A DNA stretch of 18,148 nt from a virus (taxonomy: Duplodnaviria > Heunggongvirae > Uroviricota > Caudoviricetes). The notes beneath the pieces were generated by a model that saw only the letters and a program-made list of their open reading frames with translations, searched no databases and had not been told where the DNA came from. The stretch lies in the IMG/VR virus record IMGVR_UViG_2703718826_000002; one strand, given 5' to 3'. Each line of letters begins with the position of its first letter. Within the stretch, counting starts at the first letter, position 1. This document shows, one piece after another, positions 457 through 15,189 of the stretch. The translations under genes were made by a program, and so were the position numbers.

Positions 457-1308
457 ATGATAAATTATGTCTACGGCGAACAACTGTACCAGGAGTTCGT
501 CAGCTTCAGGGATCTCTTTCTAAAAAAAGCTGTTGCACGCGCCCAACACGTTGATACAGCCAGCGACGGTCGTCCTGTACGCCCGGTTGTCGTTCTACCG
601 TTCAAAGAAACTGACAGCATTCAGGCTGAAATTGATAAATGGACTTTAATGGCGCGGGAACTGGAACAGTACCCAGACCTCAATATCCCAAAGACTATTT
701 TATATCCAGTGCCTAACATCCTTCGCGGTGTGCGTAAGGTTACAACTTATCAGACAGAAGCTGTGAACAGCGTCAACATGACCGCTGGCCGCATTATTCA
801 TCTGATTGATAAGGACATTCGCATCCAAAAAAGCGCGGGGATCAATGAGCACAGTGCGAAATACATAGAGAACCTGGAAGCAACAAAAGAGCTAATGAAG
901 CAGTACCCGGAGGATGAAAAATTCCGTATGCGCGTACACGGCTTTAGCGAAACAATGCTGCGCGTCCACTACATTTCCAGTAGCCCTAACTACAATGATG
1001 GTAAATCAGTTAGTTACCATGTGCCACTGTGTGGCGTGTTTATCTGCGATGAAACTCTCCGTGATGGAATTATCATCAACGGTGAATTCGAAAAAGCAAA
1101 ATTTAGCCTTTATGACTCCATAGAACCGATCATCTGCGACCGCTGGCCGCAAGCAAAAATATATCGCCTGGCAGATATTGAAAATGTAAAAAAACAAATT
1201 GCCATCACTCGCGAAGAGAAAAAGGTTAAGTCAGCCGCATCAGTTACGCGCAGCCGTAAAACCAAGAAGGGGCAGCCAGTAAACGACAACCCCGAAAGCG
1301 CGCAATAA
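457..1308 (+). CDS. hypothetical phage/plasmid protein (283 aa) with basic C-terminal tail; possibly replication-associated
   Basis: Long ORF with strong RBS GGAGGAGG 6 nt upstream of ATG. Lys/Arg-rich C-terminus suggests nucleic-acid binding. Family assignment (RepL-like or YagK/YfjJ-like) could not be verified. Confidence 0.6.
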   Translation: MINYVYGEQLYQEFVSFRDLFLKKAVARAQHVDTASDGRPVRPVVVLPFKETDSIQAEIDKWTLMARELEQYPDLNIPKTILYPVPNILRGVRKVTTYQTEAVNSVNMTAGRIIHLIDKDIRIQKSAGINEHSAKYIENLEATKELMKQYPEDEKFRMRVHGFSETMLRVHYISSSPNYNDGKSVSYHVPLCGVFICDETLRDGIIINGEFEKAKFSLYDSIEPIICDRWPQAKIYRLADIENVKKQIAITREEKKVKSAASVTRSRKTKKGQPVNDNPESAQ

Positions 1309-2986: not shown

Positions 2987-3029
2987 AATGTAACATCGGC
3001 AGTCAAAAAACACAATTTATTAGAGCAAG
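2987..3029 (-). promoter_or_regulatory. C1-type operator (3013-3029, CTTGCTCTAATAAATTG on minus strand, 15/17) overlapping the -35 (TTGTGT) of a promoter with -10 TACATT
   Basis: 17-mer begins 2 nt after the terminase stop codon; 17-nt spacer between hexamers. Confidence 0.5.
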
Positions 3030-3032
3030 TGT

Positions 3033-4160
3033 TTATTCATTAAGCCATGCCAGAGCTTCATCAACCTGCGCTTCGTCTTCGACGCTAAGCACTTCGTCCT
3101 GGGGAACATAATCCGCCAGCATAGCGAAACAATATGTATCCCAATGGTCTGGTGAGTGCAGGTTGAGTTTTTTCTTCATATCCTCCTTACTCATCACCTT
3201 CCATTGACCTGCGGAGTTAATCCCTACAGGGATTTTCGACGCTTCCTCAATAGTTTCATTACCCTTATCCAGTCTCATACGACCAGATTTTACGGCCTCT
3301 GCGGCTTGAACGTTGGCATAAGCACGTTTATCAAAGTACAGGCTCTTATCTTCACGGCTATGCATCTTTTTACCCCAGCGTATACGCTGTACGGTAATAC
3401 CATAATACTCGTACATCAGATCCGCCGTTGCTTTACCCAGGCCATCGCCGTCTATCGCTATGGTGATATTGGGGAATCGCTCAGGATTACATTCTGCGAA
3501 AATTTTGGCGGCAAGCTGCGTTTCTGTAACGTCTGTGTATTCCAGCATTCGATAGTTGATTACACGGCGTTTATTTCGCTGGCCGGACACCATCATGATA
3601 TTGATAAAGGACTTATCCCGTCCTGTACCACCAGCAACGTCCACACATGCAAGCCAGCCCCATCCTTTGGCAATCTTGACTTTCCGCCGCGTCGCACGTT
3701 CAACCTCATCACGTCCAAGAAGGAAGCCGTCCTGTAATTTAGGGAATAGGCCGCGTACCTTAATCATGTACATAGGGTTATCACGCCCGCCGTACTCCGC
3801 CAGCTTCATTTTGATAAATTCTGACGTTACCAGCGGTGATTCCTCACTGTTAAGCGTGATCGCCGTATAAACGCCATCTGGGTTACCAGGACGCTTGGCC
3901 AGTTTATGGTGAGTATCGTAGAAATAGCCGCTTGGGCGTGTAGGCTGTGACAGTAATAAGATGCGGTTATCCTGTCCGGTAAGAGCACCGGTGATGATAC
4001 CGAAAGCTCTATCACTGACACCGGAGGCTTCATCGATAATATACAGAAGATGATCTGCGTGTTCACCGGCGAGAACTTCTTCACTTCCCAGACGAAAGCC
4101 CTTCGGTACTACAGTCCATACACCTTTACCAGTAGACTGGCCCCCTGAATCTCCAGACAA
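3033..4160 (-). CDS. terminase large subunit, C-terminal portion (Walker B plus nuclease domain); gene interrupted upstream
   Basis: 375-aa ORF starting at a TTG; contains Walker B-like [11 protein letters not shown] and acidic nuclease-domain motifs. In-frame stop 3 codons upstream of the putative start. Confidence 0.75.
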
Positions 4161-4165
4161 CCAGT

Positions 4166-4183
4166 ATCACTTATTTAAGTGAT
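4166..4183. repeat. 18-bp perfect palindrome ATCACTTATTTAAGTGAT at the break between the two terminase ORFs
   Basis: Revcomp of ATCACTTA is TAAGTGAT; provides stop codons in all three minus-strand frames. Confidence 0.8.
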
Positions 4184-4605
4184 AACAGGTGTCTGGAAAT
4201 ATAGGGGCAAATCCAACCAGTAACCTCATAGAAAGCGGTTTCTGTCAGAACAAAATAATCAGCAAGCCATGGAAAACGGCTGGTGGCAGTAGCCCAGTTT
4301 ATCTTGATGTACTTGAATATACCGGTCATTACCTGCTGAATTTTGTTCGCAACGATAATGGCGCGGGCACCGGGATACATGATTATGAACAACATGATCA
4401 TGATAGAAGTCATGTCTGATTTCCCGGTACCGTGACCAGACGAAACAGATGTCTTGCTACCCTGTTCCTGCACAGACTCAATAATCAGATCCTGCTGCCA
4501 GGTAGGTGTTTTGCCGAACAAAACATCAGCGGCCGCAATCCAGTCATAACGATATAGCGCCACCAGCTCGCGCCAACGTGGATCCGTTACGCAACTTCTG
4601 GCCAT
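4171..4605 (-). CDS. terminase large subunit, N-terminal portion (Walker A SGHGTGKS)
   Basis: 144-aa ORF with P-loop; ends in TAA inside the palindrome. Start overlaps the stop of the upstream acidic protein (TAATG). Confidence 0.7.
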
Positions 4606-5281: not shown

Positions 5282-5323
5282 ATAATACCATCGATTAAAG
5301 AAATAGCAATACATTAGAGCAAT
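5282..5323 (-). promoter_or_regulatory. C1-type operator (5307-5323, ATTGCTCTAATGTATTG on minus strand, 14/17) overlapping promoter (-35 TTGCTA, -10 TATTAT)
   Basis: Begins immediately after the stop of the 347-aa gene and precedes the packaging genes; 16-nt spacer between hexamers. Confidence 0.45.

Positions 5324-8916: not shown

Positions 8917-8920
<4 letters not shown>
7358..8920 (+). CDS. hsdM: Type I restriction-modification system, methyltransferase subunit HsdM (Type IC, EcoR124-family)
   Basis: 520 aa; AdoMet motif [10 protein letters not shown] and N6-adenine motif NPPY (AIVSNPPYS); N-terminus matches recalled EcoR124I HsdM. Stop overlaps hsdS start (ATGA). Confidence 0.95.
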
Positions 8921-10152
<1,232 letters not shown>

Positions 10153-10273: not shown

Positions 10274-13200
10274 ATGACTCATCAAACACACACCATTGCT
10301 GAATCCAATAACTTTATCGTCCTTGATAAGTACATCAAAGCTGAGCAAACAGGCGACAGCTACCAGAGCGAATCGGACCTGGAACGTGAACTGATTCAGG
10401 ACCTGCGGAATCAGGGCTATGAATTTATATCCGTAAAATCACAGTCGGCGATGCTAGCCAATGTTCGGGAACAGCTTCAGAACCTCAATGGTGTGGTGTT
10501 TAATGACAGCGAGTGGCGGCGTTTCACGGAGCAGTATCTGGATAACCCGAGCGATGGCATTCTGGATAAGACCCGTAAAATCCATATCGACTATATTTGC
10601 GACTTTATTTTTGATGACGAGCGTCTTGAGAACATCTATTTGATAGATAAAAAGAATCTCATGCGCAATAAGGTGCAGATTATCCAGCAGTTTGAACAGA
10701 CGGGTTCTCATGCTAACCGTTATGACGTCACGATCCTGGTTAATGGTTTACCGCTGGTGCAAATCGAACTAAAAAAACGCGGGGTGGCGATTCGTGAGGC
10801 TTTCAACCAGATACATCGTTACAGTAAAGAGAGTTTTAACAGCGAAAATTCCCTGTTTAAGTATCTGCAGCTGTTCGTCATTTCCAACGGCACTGATACC
10901 CGTTATTTTGCCAACACCACAAAGCGCGATAAAAACAGTTTTGACTTCACCATGAACTGGGCTAAATCAGACAATACACTGATTAAAGACCTCAAAGACT
11001 TTACCGCTACCTTTTTCCAGAAACATACTCTGCTTAATGTTCTGGTGAACTACAGCGTTTTTGACAGCAGTCAGACACTACTGGTAATGCGACCGTACCA
11101 GATTGCCGCCACCGAGCGCATTCTGTGGAAAATTAAGAGTTCCTTTACAGCGAAGAACTGGTCAAAACCGGAAAGCGGTGGGTATATCTGGCACACTACC
11201 GGTTCTGGTAAAACCCTCACCAGCTTTAAAGCCGCGCGTCTGGCAACAGAGCTGGACTTTATTGATAAAGTCTTCTTTGTGGTCGACAGGAAAGACCTCG
11301 ATTACCAGACCATGAAGGAATATCAGCGTTTTTCGCCAGACAGCGTCAACGGCTCGGAAAATACCGCAGGTCTTAAACGAAATCTGGATAAGGACGATAA
11401 CAAAATTATCGTCACTACTATTCAGAAACTCAATAACCTGATGAAAGCAGAAAGCGATCTGCCTGTATATAATCAGCAAGTGGTGTTTATATTTGATGAA
11501 TGCCACCGCAGCCAGTTTGGAGAAGCGCAGAAAAACCTGAAGAAGAAATTCAAACGCTATTATCAGTTTGGTTTTACCGGCACCCCTATTTTCCCGGAAA
11601 ACGCCTTAGGCTCAGAAACAACCGCCAGCGTATTTGGTCGTGAATTGCATTCGTATGTAATTACCGATGCGATTCGTGACGAAAAAGTGCTCAAATTCAA
11701 GGTGGACTACAACGATGTGCGGCCACAGTTTAAGTCTTTAGAGACAGAAACTGACGAGAAAAAACTGAGTGCGGCTGAAAATCAGCAGGCGTTTCTTCAT
11801 CCCATGCGTATTCAGGAAATCACGCAATATATTCTGAATAATTTCCGCCAGAAAACCCACCGTACCTTCCCTGGCTCAAAAGGTTTTAATGCTATGTTGG
11901 CAGTGAGCAGCGTGGATGCCGCGAAAGCCTATTATGCGACGTTTAAACGGTTACAAGAAGAAGCCGCTAATAAATCGGCTACCTATAAACCGCTGCGTAT
12001 TGCGACAATCTTCTCCTTTGCCGCCAATGAAGAACAAAATGCCATTGGTGAAATTTCCGATGAAACTTTTGATACCAGCGCAATGGACAGCAGTGCTAAA
12101 GAGTTTCTGGACGCTGCAATTCGTGAATATAACAGCCATTTTAAAACTAACTTTAGCACCGACAGTAACGGTTTTCAGAACTACTATCGTGATTTAGCCC
12201 AGCGGGTTAAAAATCAGGATATCGATCTGCTAATTGTCGTGGGGATGTTTTTAACCGGCTTCGATGCTCCAACATTAAACACGCTATTCGTCGATAAAAA
12301 CTTGCGTTTTCACGGCCTGATGCAGGCATTCTCCCGCACCAACCGCATTTATGACGCGACTAAAACCTTCGGTAATATTGTCACGTTCCGGGATCTGGAA
12401 CGCTCAACCATTGATGCCATAACGCTGTTTGGTGACAAAAATACCAAAAATGTGGTTTTAGAAAAGAGTTATGCAGAGTATATGGAAGGCTTTACTGATG
12501 CTGCCACTGGTGAAGCTAAACGCGGCTTCATGACAGTAGTTTCAGAACTGGAACAACGGTTCCCTGACCCTACCAGTATTGAAAGTGAAAAAGAGAAGAA
12601 AGACTTCGTTAAACTGTTTGGCGAATACCTGCGTGCCGAGAACATCCTGCAAAACTATGATGAATTTGCCACGCTAAAAGCCCTGCAACAAATCGATCTT
12701 AGCGATCCTGTTGCGGTAGAAAAATTCAAAGCAGAACATTATGTGGATAATGAAAAGTTCGCTGAATTGCAAACAATTCGTCTCCCTGCTGATCGCAAGA
12801 TTCAGGATTATCGTTCTGCCTATAACGATATTCGCGACTGGCAGCGCCGTGAGAAAGAAGCTGAGAAAAAAGAGAAATCAACCACTGACTGGGATGACGT
12901 AGTTTTTGAGGTCGATTTGCTGAAGTCTCAGGAAATAAACCTGGATTATATCCTTGGACTGATTTTCGAACACAATAGACAAAATAAAGGCAAGGGCGAA
13001 ATGATCGAAGAGGTCAAACGCTTAATTCGTTCAAGCCTGGGGAACCGGGCGAAAGAGGGCCTGGTGGTCGATTTTATTCAGCAAACGAACCTGGATGATT
13101 TACCAGACAAAGCCAGTATCATTGAGGCATTCTTTACGTTTGCTCAACGCGAACAGCAACGTGAAGCAGAAGCATTGATAAAAGAAGAAAATCTCAATGA

Positions 13201-13390
13201 AGATGCAGCAAAACGCTATATTCGCACGTCTTTAAAACGCGAATACGCCACCGAAAATGGCACAGAATTAAACGAAACATTACCAAAACTTAGTCCGTTG
13301 AATCCGCAATATAAAACGAAAAAACAGGCAGTTTTCCAGAAAATCGTCTCGTTTATTGAGAAGTTTAAAGGCGTAGGCGGAAAAATATAG
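10274..13390 (+). CDS. hsdR: Type I R-M restriction subunit HsdR (Type IC; PD-(D/E)xK nuclease plus SF2 helicase motor)
   Basis: 1038 aa; nuclease motif VQIELKK, Walker A TGSGKT, DEAH-like FDECHRS; size matches recalled EcoR124I HsdR. Confidence 0.95.
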
Positions 13391-13406
13391 CCCAATTCGT
13401 ATTTTT

Positions 13407-13434
13407 CTTGCGGGTTCTTAATTAAACCCGCAAG
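13407..13434. terminator. hairpin (9-10-bp stem CTTGCGGGT/ACCCGCAAG) 17 nt after hsdR stop, without U-tract; possible terminator or RNA-stabilising stem
   Basis: Perfect inverted repeat; A-rich rather than U-rich 3' flank on either strand. Confidence 0.3.
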
Positions 13435-13469
13435 AGACCGTGGGGTTCCAAATGGCTAATATACTCCCC

Positions 13470-13556
13470 TTACCCATGCGCGACAATGCTGCCAAAAGTG
13501 ATAGAGAACAGCCAGAAATAGATCGCGGCCATAATGATTTTGAATGCCGTGTTCAT
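13470..13556 (-). CDS. candidate small hydrophobic membrane peptide (28 aa, MNTAFKIIMAAIYFWLFSITFGSIVAHG)
   Basis: Below the ORF-track size cut-off; strong RBS AGGAG 8 nt upstream of ATG; single predicted transmembrane helix. Confidence 0.3.
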   Translation of the reverse strand: MNTAFKIIMAAIYFWLFSITFGSIVAHG

Positions 13557-13583
13557 ATTTTCAGCTCCTGTGATTGATTGGAT

Positions 13584-13615
13584 ACATGCCGCGCCTTGCG
13601 GCATGTTTTTATTTT
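13584..13615 (+). terminator. rho-independent terminator (plus strand): 9-bp stem ACATGCCGC/GCGGCATGT, loop GCCTT, then TTTTATTTT
   Basis: Textbook hairpin plus U-tract; likely terminates hsdR or an antisense transcript. The same hairpin would sit in the 5' leader of the minus-strand peptide mRNA. Confidence 0.6.
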
Positions 13616-13638
13616 CACTTTCTCTGTTTTAAAAATCA

Positions 13639-13655
13639 AGATTTATTAGAGCAAT
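13639..13655 (-). promoter_or_regulatory. C1-type operator (ATTGCTCTAATAAATCT on minus strand, 16/17 to consensus)
   Basis: Best consensus match in the window; immediately follows the TAA stop of the HAD gene; promoter-like TTGATT-N17-GAAAAT downstream. Confidence 0.55.
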
Positions 13656-14161
13656 TATTGTTGATGGAGAAGCGCGTTTCCATACTCCCTGACCATTAAC
13701 GTAAGTACGCCGTGACTCCTGAAAACACGCGCCACTTCAATCTTATCTTCCAGCGCGAACGCAATTTTACTTAGACCAATTTTCTTCAGGAGATCAATCT
13801 TTGCTGGACCGTCATTTCTGTCATCGGTGGCAGGACGCATAGATAGCAAAGGCTCAGCCCCATTTGTTACGTGCTTACGCAACCAGGCTCGTGTTTTATC
13901 CCTGGCTATCTCACAGCGCCCGGTTACAAACCAGAGGGTGTAAATGCCGGACAACTGGCGCACCATATCAATAACTGGAGTGATGGGAGCATCAGTGTCA
14001 CAGGCAAGGTTAAACTCGTTCCAGTGCTCTGTTAATGCACCTTTGCCAGGTGGTGGAAGTAAATGCAGCCTGTCTTCCGTTGCCTCTGATATCGTCCCAT
14101 CAATATCTACTATGACGATGTACGGACGTTCCTGGTGTGCGTGTTTATTGAAAATACTCAA
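13655..14161 (-). CDS. HAD-superfamily phosphatase (polynucleotide 3'-phosphatase / nucleotidase-like)
   Basis: 168 aa; HAD motif I VDIDGT, later conserved T/S, K and DD motifs; TTG start with GGAGG SD. Confidence 0.6.
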   Translation of the reverse strand: MSIFNKHAHQERPYIVIVDIDGTISEATEDRLHLLPPPGKGALTEHWNEFNLACDTDAPITPVIDMVRQLSGIYTLWFVTGRCEIARDKTRAWLRKHVTNGAEPLLSMRPATDDRNDGPAKIDLLKKIGLSKIAFALEDKIEVARVFRSHGVLTLMVREYGNALLHQQ

Positions 14162-14180
14162 ATGCCCTCCTCATTGGACG

Positions 14181-14213
14181 AAAAAAATGCTGGTGGGAGC
14201 ACTCCACCAGCAT
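14181..14213 (-). terminator. rho-independent terminator (minus strand): 10-bp stem ATGCTGGTGG/CCACCAGCAT, 7-nt loop, then U6-7
   Basis: Perfect stem followed by a U-run in minus-strand sense, between the truncated orfA-like ORF and the HAD gene. Confidence 0.6.
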
Positions 14214-14233
14214 TAAAAGTGACACTGTAACTA

Positions 14234-14460
14234 TCAGCGAACGTAAATAGTGCCGCCGTTCTCTTTTTCCCATGCATCGCTACGTGCATAGCAAACATCG
14301 AGAAGTCTTCTTGCCGCAGTTTCCTCTACCCCAGCTTCGGCTTCGCGGAGAATACTGATGATCTGTTCGTCGGAAAAACGCTTCTTCATGGGGATGTCCT
14401 CATGTGGCTTATGAAGACATTACTAACATCGGGGTGTACTAATCAACGGGGAGCAGGTCA
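14234..14460 (-). mobile_element. IS3-family (IS407-like) left-end remnant: terminal repeat-like TGACCTGCTCCCC plus truncated orfA (51 codons)
   Basis: Minus strand from 14460 begins TGACCTGC...; ORF 14234-14389 starts MKKRFSDEQIISILREAEAG (typical IS3 OrfA N-terminus) with GAGGA SD, diverges, and stops after a conserved GG. Confidence 0.4.
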
Positions 14461-14889
14461 AACCATCGCGGTCATTTCATTGAGTTTTGTTTCCAGCTCA
14501 ATGCTTATACGTTCGGCATTATCAGCACGCTGGTTGGCGTCATGCGTCGCATCGTCGATCGCGTCCTGTTGCTGGCGTTTCAAATGTTCAATTTGCAGCT
14601 GAAGCTCTTCAATTTCTTTACCCTTCAGACCGAGATCCAACTGCATATTTTCAGCTGCATCTACCAGGGAGTTATGGCTATCAGCTTCTGCGTTATAAAC
14701 ATCAATAAGCTGTGCGTGAAGCATCTCCGCTGACTGAACCGCATTATCAAAAAAACGTGCTGTGAGGTCATCACAACTAACGCGGCGTTGCGCGGCCCGG
14801 ATGTTCTGGATAATGGCCGGGATACCGGCATTCAGGACATCAGGGATAGATACATTTTCGATTGATTGGTTTTGTGCTGAAGTGCTCAT
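14458..14889 (-). CDS. hypothetical coiled-coil protein (143 aa)
   Basis: Intact ORF with heptad-rich, Gln/Glu-rich C-terminal half; abuts the 72-aa ORF. Confidence 0.45.
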   Translation of the reverse strand: MSTSAQNQSIENVSIPDVLNAGIPAIIQNIRAAQRRVSCDDLTARFFDNAVQSAEMLHAQLIDVYNAEADSHNSLVDAAENMQLDLGLKGKEIEELQLQIEHLKRQQQDAIDDATHDANQRADNAERISIELETKLNEMTAMV

Positions 14890-15123: not shown

Positions 15124-15189
15124 ATTGCTCTAATAAAAAACGTGATGAGTGTACATCACGTTTTAAAAATATGGAATTATTAGAGCAAT
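15124..15189. promoter_or_regulatory. dual inverted C1-type operators (15124-15140 plus strand; 15173-15189 minus strand) flanking a perfect hairpin terminator (15140-15161)
   Basis: ATTGCTCTAATAAAAAA and revcomp ATTGCTCTAATAATTCC (each 14/17); central stem ACGTGATG/CATCACGT with A/T tracts on both sides. Confidence 0.55.

Follow-up and report, generated by a model that had tools for sequence, protein, structure and literature searches.

The 18,148-nucleotide (nt) stretch analysed here (hereafter the window; IMG/VR virus record IMGVR_UViG_2703718826_000002, Caudoviricetes) belongs to an element related to bacteriophage P1, and we concentrate on a small hydrophobic open reading frame (ORF) within positions 13391-13655, the intergenic region between the convergent genes hsdR (plus strand) and pap (minus strand). 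The ORF list for this region contains a minus-strand frame of 44 amino acids (aa; 13470-13604), within which an internal ATG at 13556 opens the 28-aa peptide MNTAFKIIMAAIYFWLFSITFGSIVAHG. This shorter product has a grand average of hydropathy (GRAVY) of 1.29, with 2.08 for the best 19-residue window, and holds one hydrophobic helix. An earlier note, made from the letters of this DNA alone, had described a small hydrophobic single-helix ORF on the minus strand with a strong AGGAG Shine-Dalgarno (SD) sequence and a strong hairpin on either side, and we found all of these elements in place (Table 1). Its description of the ORF as antisense to the hsdR 3′ region was inaccurate: hsdR ends at 13390, and the ORF lies 79 nt past that stop, convergent with hsdR and outside its coding region. 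The hsdR product matches the EcoR124I HsdR (PDB 2w00_A) over its full length (2295 bits).

Table 1. Features at and around the small ORF, in window coordinates
Feature	Position	Strand	Remarks
Small ORF, 28 codons and stop (MNTAFKIIMAAIYFWLFSITFGSIVAHG)	13470-13556	-	Predicted one transmembrane helix; equals P1 AF234172 84392-84478, unannotated there
Shine-Dalgarno AGGAG	13565-13569	-	8 nt upstream of the ATG at 13556
Motif CCAATCAATCAC	13570-13581	-	Directly 5′ of the SD; conserved
GC-rich hairpin	13584-13606	both	Minus: 5′-proximal stem-loop of the peptide mRNA; plus: intrinsic terminator with T-run 13607-13616
Sigma-70 promoters P1pmgT and P2pmgT	13611-13639 and 13626-13654	-	Predicted; transferred from the P1 annotation
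C1 repressor operator Op88/OpmgT (ATTGCTCTAATAAATCT)	13639-13655	-	Overlaps the pap stop codon
Recombination junction	13465/13466		P1 backbone at 13466 and above; hsd cassette at 13465 and below
13-bp hairpin of the hsd cassette	13404-13437		Just 3′ of the hsdR stop; no T-run on either strand
hsdR, EcoR124-family (type IC) restriction-modification, 1038 aa	10274-13390	+	Convergent with the peptide ORF
pap, HAD-type polynucleotide 3′-phosphatase	13655-14161	-	Upstream of the operator/small-ORF module
Plus-strand 45/41-codon ORF	13440/13452-13577	+	Judged spurious

Positions 13466-13655 are 98% identical over 190 nt to positions 84293-84482 of the P1 genome (AF234172), that is, to the spacer between pap and pmgT, and the shared stretch takes in the pap stop, the C1 operator, both pmgT promoters, the hairpin, the SD and the 28-codon ORF (P1 annotation was transferred by adding 10465 to the coordinate in locus L001 to give the window coordinate). 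The P1 record annotates OpmgT (formerly Op88) and the predicted P1pmgT and P2pmgT here and no coding sequence, treating about 190 nt as a "leader" to the pmgT ATG at 84488; it also remarks that identical DNA follows hsdR in R124/3 and EcoDXXI. The small ORF is intact in P1, where its TAA stop is followed by 9 nt (GGGGGATGC) and then by the pmgT ATG. The operator agrees with the 17-bp asymmetric C1 consensus ATTGCTCTAATAAATTT at 16 of 17 positions and overlaps the sigma-70 promoter, and c1 lies in the same window (457-1308, plus strand; phrog_1678, 1e-141), the equivalent gene in plasmid NZ_CP010179 being annotated "phage repressor protein C1". The earlier proposal that the peptide stands behind an operator-controlled promoter and a structured 5′ leader agrees with this match and with the significant hairpin folds described below.

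Elsewhere in the window, more C1-operator-like sites with two to three mismatches to the consensus occur at 346-362 and 15124-15140 (plus strand) and at 3013-3029, 5307-5323 and 15173-15189 (minus strand), positions that would be consistent with the Op99, Op86a/b and lpa-proximal operators of P1. A promoter-like site on the minus strand (13458-13486; TTGTCG and TATATT separated by 17 nt) lies across the junction, where the small ORF has its 3′ end, and is directed antisense into hsdR; such sites are at chance level in our scan (2 found against 1.9 expected).

The same arrangement was found in eight diverged lineages of P1 relatives, namely Cronobacter phage JK004 and seven more to which the small protein itself led us (metagenomic elements of the P1 kind, P0023-P0029). 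Each carries an operator, a hairpin, an SD and a hydrophobic ORF downstream of pap, in the order ppp, pmgQ, pmgR, pmgS, (pap), C1-type operator, hairpin, CCAATCA(ATCA)C, GGAG, ATG, and, judged by this comparison of leaders, the arrangement is more than chance. JK004 Pap is about 70% identical to Pap of the window, and pap is missing from the called genes in L093, L094, L096 and L097. In all eight lineages the ORF is exactly 53 codons long (for example, MHLIFKLAITAFYAWMLTVVITSFKPDANMKASRYLGNLSASYDCDQQGDDSL), and its stop overlaps the start of the next gene as ATGA. The sense frame is the sole stop-free frame, each of the other five holding at least one stop in every 53-aa lineage, and its summed Nei-Gojobori ratio of nonsynonymous to synonymous differences (pN/pS) is the lowest at 0.41, compared with 0.56-1.09 for the other five; on these signals the 53-aa form reads clearly as a protein-coding gene. 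Two further searches for relatives returned little: a scan of GTDB species genomes with the Pap alignment gave just two Escherichia loci and no added diversity, and the JK004-type SD motif, used as a DNA pattern against IMG/VR, gave one chance match, inside a structural gene.

The earlier note had offered an overlapping plus-strand ORF as an alternative reading and conservation as a way to choose between them, and the choice falls on the minus-strand peptide: the antisense frame matching the plus-strand ORF is closed by one to four stops in every 53-aa lineage. The plus-strand ORF was also rejected for its position, as its start lies in hsd-side DNA across the junction at 13465/13466, which makes it a chimera that is impossible in P1. 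We likewise rejected the 44-aa start at 13604, which lies inside the hairpin stem, has no SD and would add an N-terminal extension absent from all 53-aa lineages.

Over the 28 codons common to the P1-type ORF and the 53-aa type, DNA identity is only about 49%, with 18-19, 7-8 and 16-18 differences at codon positions 1, 2 and 3, respectively. By this count it is the second codon position, the one that sets the hydrophobic NTN codons, that is preserved between the two forms. GGAG and the ATG are invariant in all lineages (the eight 53-aa ones and the P1 type), and M1, K6, A11 and W15 are invariant between the two kinds of peptide. Aligned in this way, the 28-aa P1-type peptide is a positional ortholog of the 53-aa form that keeps the transmembrane helix only. 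One could still suppose that the leader is non-coding, with only its operator, promoters and hairpin functional, and that the ORF is there by chance; it is very short, no gene is called here in the P1 or P7 reference, and constraint within the P1-type population is weak. We consider this very unlikely, as a hydrophobic ORF with conserved ATG and SD at the same position in eight lineages, being the sole open frame with the lowest pN/pS, and the conservation of second codon positions despite roughly 50% DNA identity all speak against it. We think it probable instead that the ORF is a real, C1-gated gene for a small membrane protein, placed first after the promoter in the Op88/OpmgT early operon of P1-like phage-plasmids.

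Among 82 P1-type loci, the SD, start codon and frame of the 28-aa ORF are intact in 81. We counted 6 synonymous and 9 nonsynonymous variable sites (about 18 and 66 being available, respectively); the frequent alleles differ only synonymously, and most of the nonsynonymous variants were seen once. Present-day constraint on the 28-aa form is plausible from these sequences and weakly supported. Several observations weigh against a functional C1-gated gene. The nonsynonymous/synonymous ratio in the P1 type, approximately 0.4-0.5, is not clearly different from neutral, and polymorphism by codon position (4/5/4, compared with 14/7/43 in pap) has no third-position bias. Natural variants exist in which the stop is lost or the ORF broken (P0007, P0010-P0014, P0021 and L058). 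The P1-type peptide is without the conserved 28-aa C-terminal tail of the 53-aa form, its similarity to that form fading past about codon 23, and no remnants of the tail or of the JK004 downstream gene were found in P1-type loci, as might be the case for a recently truncated relic. Finally, the literature on pmgT, Op88 and P1 small proteins or ribosome profiling (Ribo-seq) yielded nothing on this ORF and no Ribo-seq or proteomic report.

Most of these points would also suit a different history, in which the functional gene is the 53-aa form. An ancestor shared by P1, P7 and SJ46 would have lost the 3′ half of that gene, leaving a non-functional 28-codon remnant, which would persist on account of its shortness and its location within the operator, promoter and leader on which downstream cargo depends. 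In a variant of this idea, the frame is an upstream ORF (uORF) that only delivers ribosomes to the next gene, the peptide sequence being irrelevant. The missing tail, the lack of codon-position bias, the nine nonsynonymous against six synonymous sites and the natural variants that have lost the stop or carry a junction within the ORF count in favour of a relic or uORF, as do the placement of the stop just ahead of the pmgT ATG in P1 and the ATGA overlap in the relatives. Set against them are the intact SD, start and frame in all but one locus with mostly singleton nonsynonymous variants, a conserved P1-type block that takes in the stop and the five codons before it, independent junctions with cargo that fall just after the stop (one of them changing TAA to TAG), and the hsd-type arrangement, which offers no downstream gene to couple to and in which hundreds of plasmids still keep the module whole. 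Sequence diversity does not suffice to make any of these latter points decisive, and on balance we regard the relic or uORF explanation as doubtful, though a serious contender.

The region upstream of the ORF is structured. At 13584-13606, a GC-rich stem of 9-10 bp gave minus-strand RNA folds with z = -3.1 and -3.8, and none of 200 shuffles folded as well. On the plus strand, the stem ACATGCCGCGCCTTGCGGCATGT (10 pairs, 6 of them G-C) is followed by TTTTTATTTT; the hairpin is stable in the plus-strand fold and was called terminator-like, so that its dual description in the earlier note, as a plus-strand terminator and as the 5′ part of the peptide mRNA, holds. The hairpin at 13404-13437 is not a canonical terminator because it has no T-run on either strand. 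Every lineage has a GC-rich hairpin at the same position, ahead of the SD by about 15-30 nt in the four that were folded, and its sequences are unrelated (5′ and 3′ arms, respectively: ACATGCCGC and GCGGCATGT in the P1 type; GGCCGC and GCGGCC in JK004 and L098; AGCCGC and GCGGCT in L096; GGCAGTCAC and GTGACTGCC in L088; GGCGGTCGC and GTGACCGCC in L089; GGGCAC and GTGCCC in L095). RNAalifold recovered a hairpin core of five pairs, four of which are changed on both sides in a compensatory manner; a common alignment of all leaders leaves the hairpins out of register, and the covariation is read from this five-pair core and directly from the subgroups. Within the P1 type, the hairpin has two polymorphisms, a C to U change that makes a G-U pair and a loop change. 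Since the opposite-strand T-run is specific to the P1-type hairpin, the conserved feature is the 5′-proximal stem-loop of the sense mRNA, and the plus-strand terminator is a P1-type extra. A function of the 5′ hairpin as the pap terminator was ruled out, as no U-run follows it on the minus strand. Stem-loops at the 5′ terminus stabilise E. coli mRNAs, and on that basis the hairpin may have a stabilising role here.

Downstream of the hairpin, pairing of the SD is absent or marginal in the minimum free energy and centroid structures of all four lineages folded. The motif CCAATCAATCAC is kept as CCAATCA(ATCA)C in every lineage despite the different adjoining hairpin sequence, and the 18-nt CAATCAATCACAGGAGCT, which comprises motif and SD, has no polymorphic site in 70 P1-type sequences; the motif could be a translational enhancer or a binding site for a regulator or small RNA (sRNA). 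In the other lineages, a promoter with TTGATT or TTGTTT, a 17-nt spacer and NANAAT can be read in the leader sequences, and it would put the transcription start at or within the 5′ arm of the hairpin, and P2pmgT would put it about 13 nt further upstream. In all nine leaders, RNAalifold also predicts base pairing between GCUCU of the operator core and GGAGC of the SD (window 13646-13652 with 13564-13569, minus strand). This predicted pairing would be relevant only to transcripts that read through from pap, where masking of the SD could occur, and may be coincidental.

P1 homology in the window ends at 13466, 4 nt past the peptide stop and just ahead of the position of the pmgT ATG in P1; beyond it lie hsdR, hsdS and hsdM in inverted orientation, followed by phd and doc. 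In P1-like phage-plasmids, pmgT through humD forms "variable region 8", one of eight variable regions (PMC9603915), and pmgT is non-essential by CRISPR interference (PMC10695390). Here pmgT through humD is replaced by an inverted EcoR124-type hsdMSR cassette, with pmgT-pmgU-pmgV no longer downstream of the leader, and because of this replacement the unit of operator, promoter, hairpin and peptide is, by its gene layout, monocistronic and converges on hsdR. A megablast search with the stretch matched 921 complete E. coli records, in which 899 of 929 places were on plasmids, as well as 869 PLSDB plasmids and 19 phage records including P1, P7, RCS47 and SJ46. Most matches cover 13466-13655 only; the hsd-type junction (coverage of at least 80% of the query) is present in 221 of the 921 E. 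coli records (about 24%) and 258 of the 869 from PLSDB. The hsd insertion is absent from P1 and from every 53-aa lineage.

Inspection of other junctions showed that cargo of the pmgT, hsd, L079 and L054 types joins the backbone within about 5 nt of the small ORF stop (window 13465-13472; P1-type loci L004-L083). One such junction turns the TAA stop into TAG, and those in P0010-P0014 replace it by a Tyr codon, which lengthens the peptide by 9-37 aa and in one case fuses it to a DUF551 protein. Going by these junctions, the stop region looks like a recombination hot-spot or module boundary. In IncF conjugative plasmids (for example, pU12A_A), an EcoR124-type hsdR is followed by just the first 84 nt of P1-type DNA (codons 3-28), cut by IS1; this remnant corresponds to window 13440-13549 (2501-2610 in locus L092). 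The remnant suggests that IncF plasmids acquired the type IC cassette from a P1-like element, or that the cassette passed between the two, IS1 playing a part. The conserved operator/promoter/hairpin/small-ORF unit marks the edge of cargo swaps to within a few nucleotides, a position that bears on the expression or silencing of cargo inserted at the hot-spot, and the 84-nt piece of the ORF beside the EcoR124-family cassette of IncF plasmids bears on the origin of that cassette.

The earlier note had compared the locus with type I toxin-antitoxin loci such as TisB, Ibs and Ldr. In size and hydrophobicity the resemblance stands; overlapping convergent transcription as the logic of a module does not, as it exists because the hsd cassette was inserted. 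Read as such a locus, the peptide would be a membrane-depolarising toxin whose mRNA is checked by hsdR read-through or by a dedicated sRNA ending at the 13584-13606 terminator, an idea that fits the small size, hydrophobicity and single helix of the product and the textbook terminator that the other strand carries just ahead of the SD. It also fits the hsdR-proximal hairpin: since this has no T-run, hsdR transcripts plausibly run on for about 215 nt and would be complementary to the ORF and the SD over their whole length. They probably continue to the terminator at 13606, antisense to the ORF, as a by-product of the cargo insertion. On the other side, the convergent hsdR is cargo, found in the 221 of 921 carriers noted above and in neither P1 nor any 53-aa lineage, the opposite-strand T-run occurs in the P1 type only, the SD is not sequestered in the four folded lineages, and the gene is single-copy, embedded in an operon and transcriptionally controlled by C1.

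Consensus scans found no plus-strand promoter-like site in window 13200-14400 and no antisense-strand promoter in P1 or L089, with chance-level sites only in JK004; a conserved cis-antisense promoter is excluded 3′ of the ORF, because cargo varies there. Searches of Pfam, NCBIfam and PHROGs with the 28-, 44- and 53-aa forms returned nothing with E <0.05 (phrog_27041 at E=0.09 and the YxzE family at E=0.08 being noise) and no match to the toxin families Hok/Gef, Ldr, TisB, Ibs, ShoB, DinQ or ZorO, and phmmer with the 44-aa form against 1.84 billion representatives found only P1-type copies. At gathering level, an Rfam search of the whole window found no toxin or antitoxin RNA, only C4 and isrK elsewhere, and the best hit of a permissive search of 13300-13750 was GcvB at 20 bits on the terminator, under the 42-bit threshold. 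With no conserved antisense promoter, an unpaired SD, no family match and the C1 repressor as the evident control, we consider a type I toxin-antitoxin locus highly improbable.

A narrower version would apply to hsd-carrying P1-like plasmids alone: there, the orphaned C1-gated peptide gene and the read-through 3′ untranslated region (UTR) of hsdR might form a newly assembled pair resembling a type I toxin-antitoxin system. Transcripts running on from hsdR would be a perfect antisense match to both ORF and SD and would terminate at the bidirectional hairpin that the two members of the pair share, and a membrane toxin released on loss of C1 or induction would be buffered by hsdR mRNA. If true, such a pair would link expression of restriction-modification to a membrane-killing switch; we mention it as a long shot to which we give the least credence of all.

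Returning to the C1-gated membrane-protein gene that we favour, its workings can be proposed as follows. In the plasmid-prophage state, C1 (457-1308) bound to its operator would occlude the overlapping sigma-70 promoters, which would fire upon induction or infection. The transcript would begin at or just upstream of the GC-rich stem-loop, which would probably stabilise its 5′ end, and the exposed AGGAG would allow translation of the hydrophobic peptide and its insertion into the inner membrane as a single-pass protein. Both in P1, with its 9-nt gap before pmgT, and in the 53-aa relatives, with ATGA, translation of the small cistron would be positioned to couple to that of the next gene. In the hsd context, the P1-type hairpin with its T-run would be the first canonical terminator met by hsdR read-through. 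As to function, our guess is that the peptide modulates host membrane function early in lytic growth and is dispensable like pmgT.

The rest of the window is likewise P1-like in content, with c1, an ant/icd/C4 immunity region, an lpa-like gene, doc, phd, hsdM-hsdS-hsdR, the small ORF, pap, a truncated pmgS, pmgQ and ppp. At gathering level, Rfam identified C4 antisense RNA at 2728-2815 (75 bits) and isrK at 2860-2938 (60 bits), both on the minus strand and upstream of icd/ant-like ORFs; region 2728-2938 is the immI immunity region of a P1-like element. Two adjacent minus-strand ORFs (4171-4605 and 3033-4160) match consecutive parts of phrog_5902 (2-129 and 129-358), which is terminase-large-subunit-like, and this suggests a split or frameshifted pac/terminase gene at 3033-4605. 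HsdS (8917-10152, plus strand, 411 aa) has two essentially identical target-recognition domains, with a block ending KFxxLT that occurs twice, and three TAEL repeats in its central spacer; from the duplicated domains and the repeats, a palindromic recognition sequence is predicted. The related plasmid NZ_CP010179 has a half-size hsdS (627 nt). On the other side of pap (14162-14889, minus strand), pmgS is cut to a 143-aa N-terminal fragment (14458-14889, minus strand; positions 1-130 of 405 in phrog_1660), so that intact PmgS has been lost from the element, and between this fragment and pap we noted a transposase-like fragment (MKKRFSDEQIISILREAEAG...) and a strong minus-strand terminator at 14186-14214. 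The element may be a defective phage.

If the small ORF is translated, the reference genome of P1, a classic model phage and transduction tool, misses a gene, namely the first cistron of the Op88 operon, encoding a C1-gated membrane peptide; P1-like phage-plasmids are, moreover, recognised carriers of resistance and defence cargo. The finding is a modest addition at the level of annotation and introduces no new mechanism, small membrane proteins of phages being a known kind.

Comparison with annotated P1 relatives shows how differently the same DNA has been treated. The ORF is unannotated in the P1 and P7 reference records, has no family assignment and is called automatically in some records. 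In Salmonella phage SJ46 it appears as the "membrane protein" J46_0098 in the 44-aa form, from the ATG at the position of window 13604, and in JL22, phi456 and some RefSeq E. coli plasmids as automatic "hypothetical protein" calls. The pmgT operon of P1 has the same DNA, which its record treats as an untranslated leader, whereas in the window the ORF is the only cistron left. The JK004-type 53-aa proteins share with the window the operator, the hairpin, the CCAATCA..C motif, the GGAG, the ATG and a homologous N-terminal transmembrane helix, but they continue into a conserved acidic C-terminal tail (SFKPDANM..SYDCDQQ, 28 aa) and overlap the next gene by ATGA, while the window peptide ends right after the helix; the JK004 annotation (gene_94 region) starts at an internal ATG, giving 38 aa.

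Among small hydrophobic proteins of bacteria, the type I toxins TisB, IbsC, LdrD, ShoB, DinQ and Hok resemble the window peptide in being 19-50 aa long, with one hydrophobic helix, and in having a structured 5′ UTR. They differ in that the window locus, for which we found no antisense RNA partner, SD sequestration or family match, is embedded in an operon and controlled by a repressor. MgrB, MgtR, AcrZ and MgtS are small inner-membrane regulators of less than 50 aa that act by binding larger membrane proteins. Without sequence similarity to the window peptide, they are likewise single-pass, and by analogy they offer a plausible model for its mode of action.

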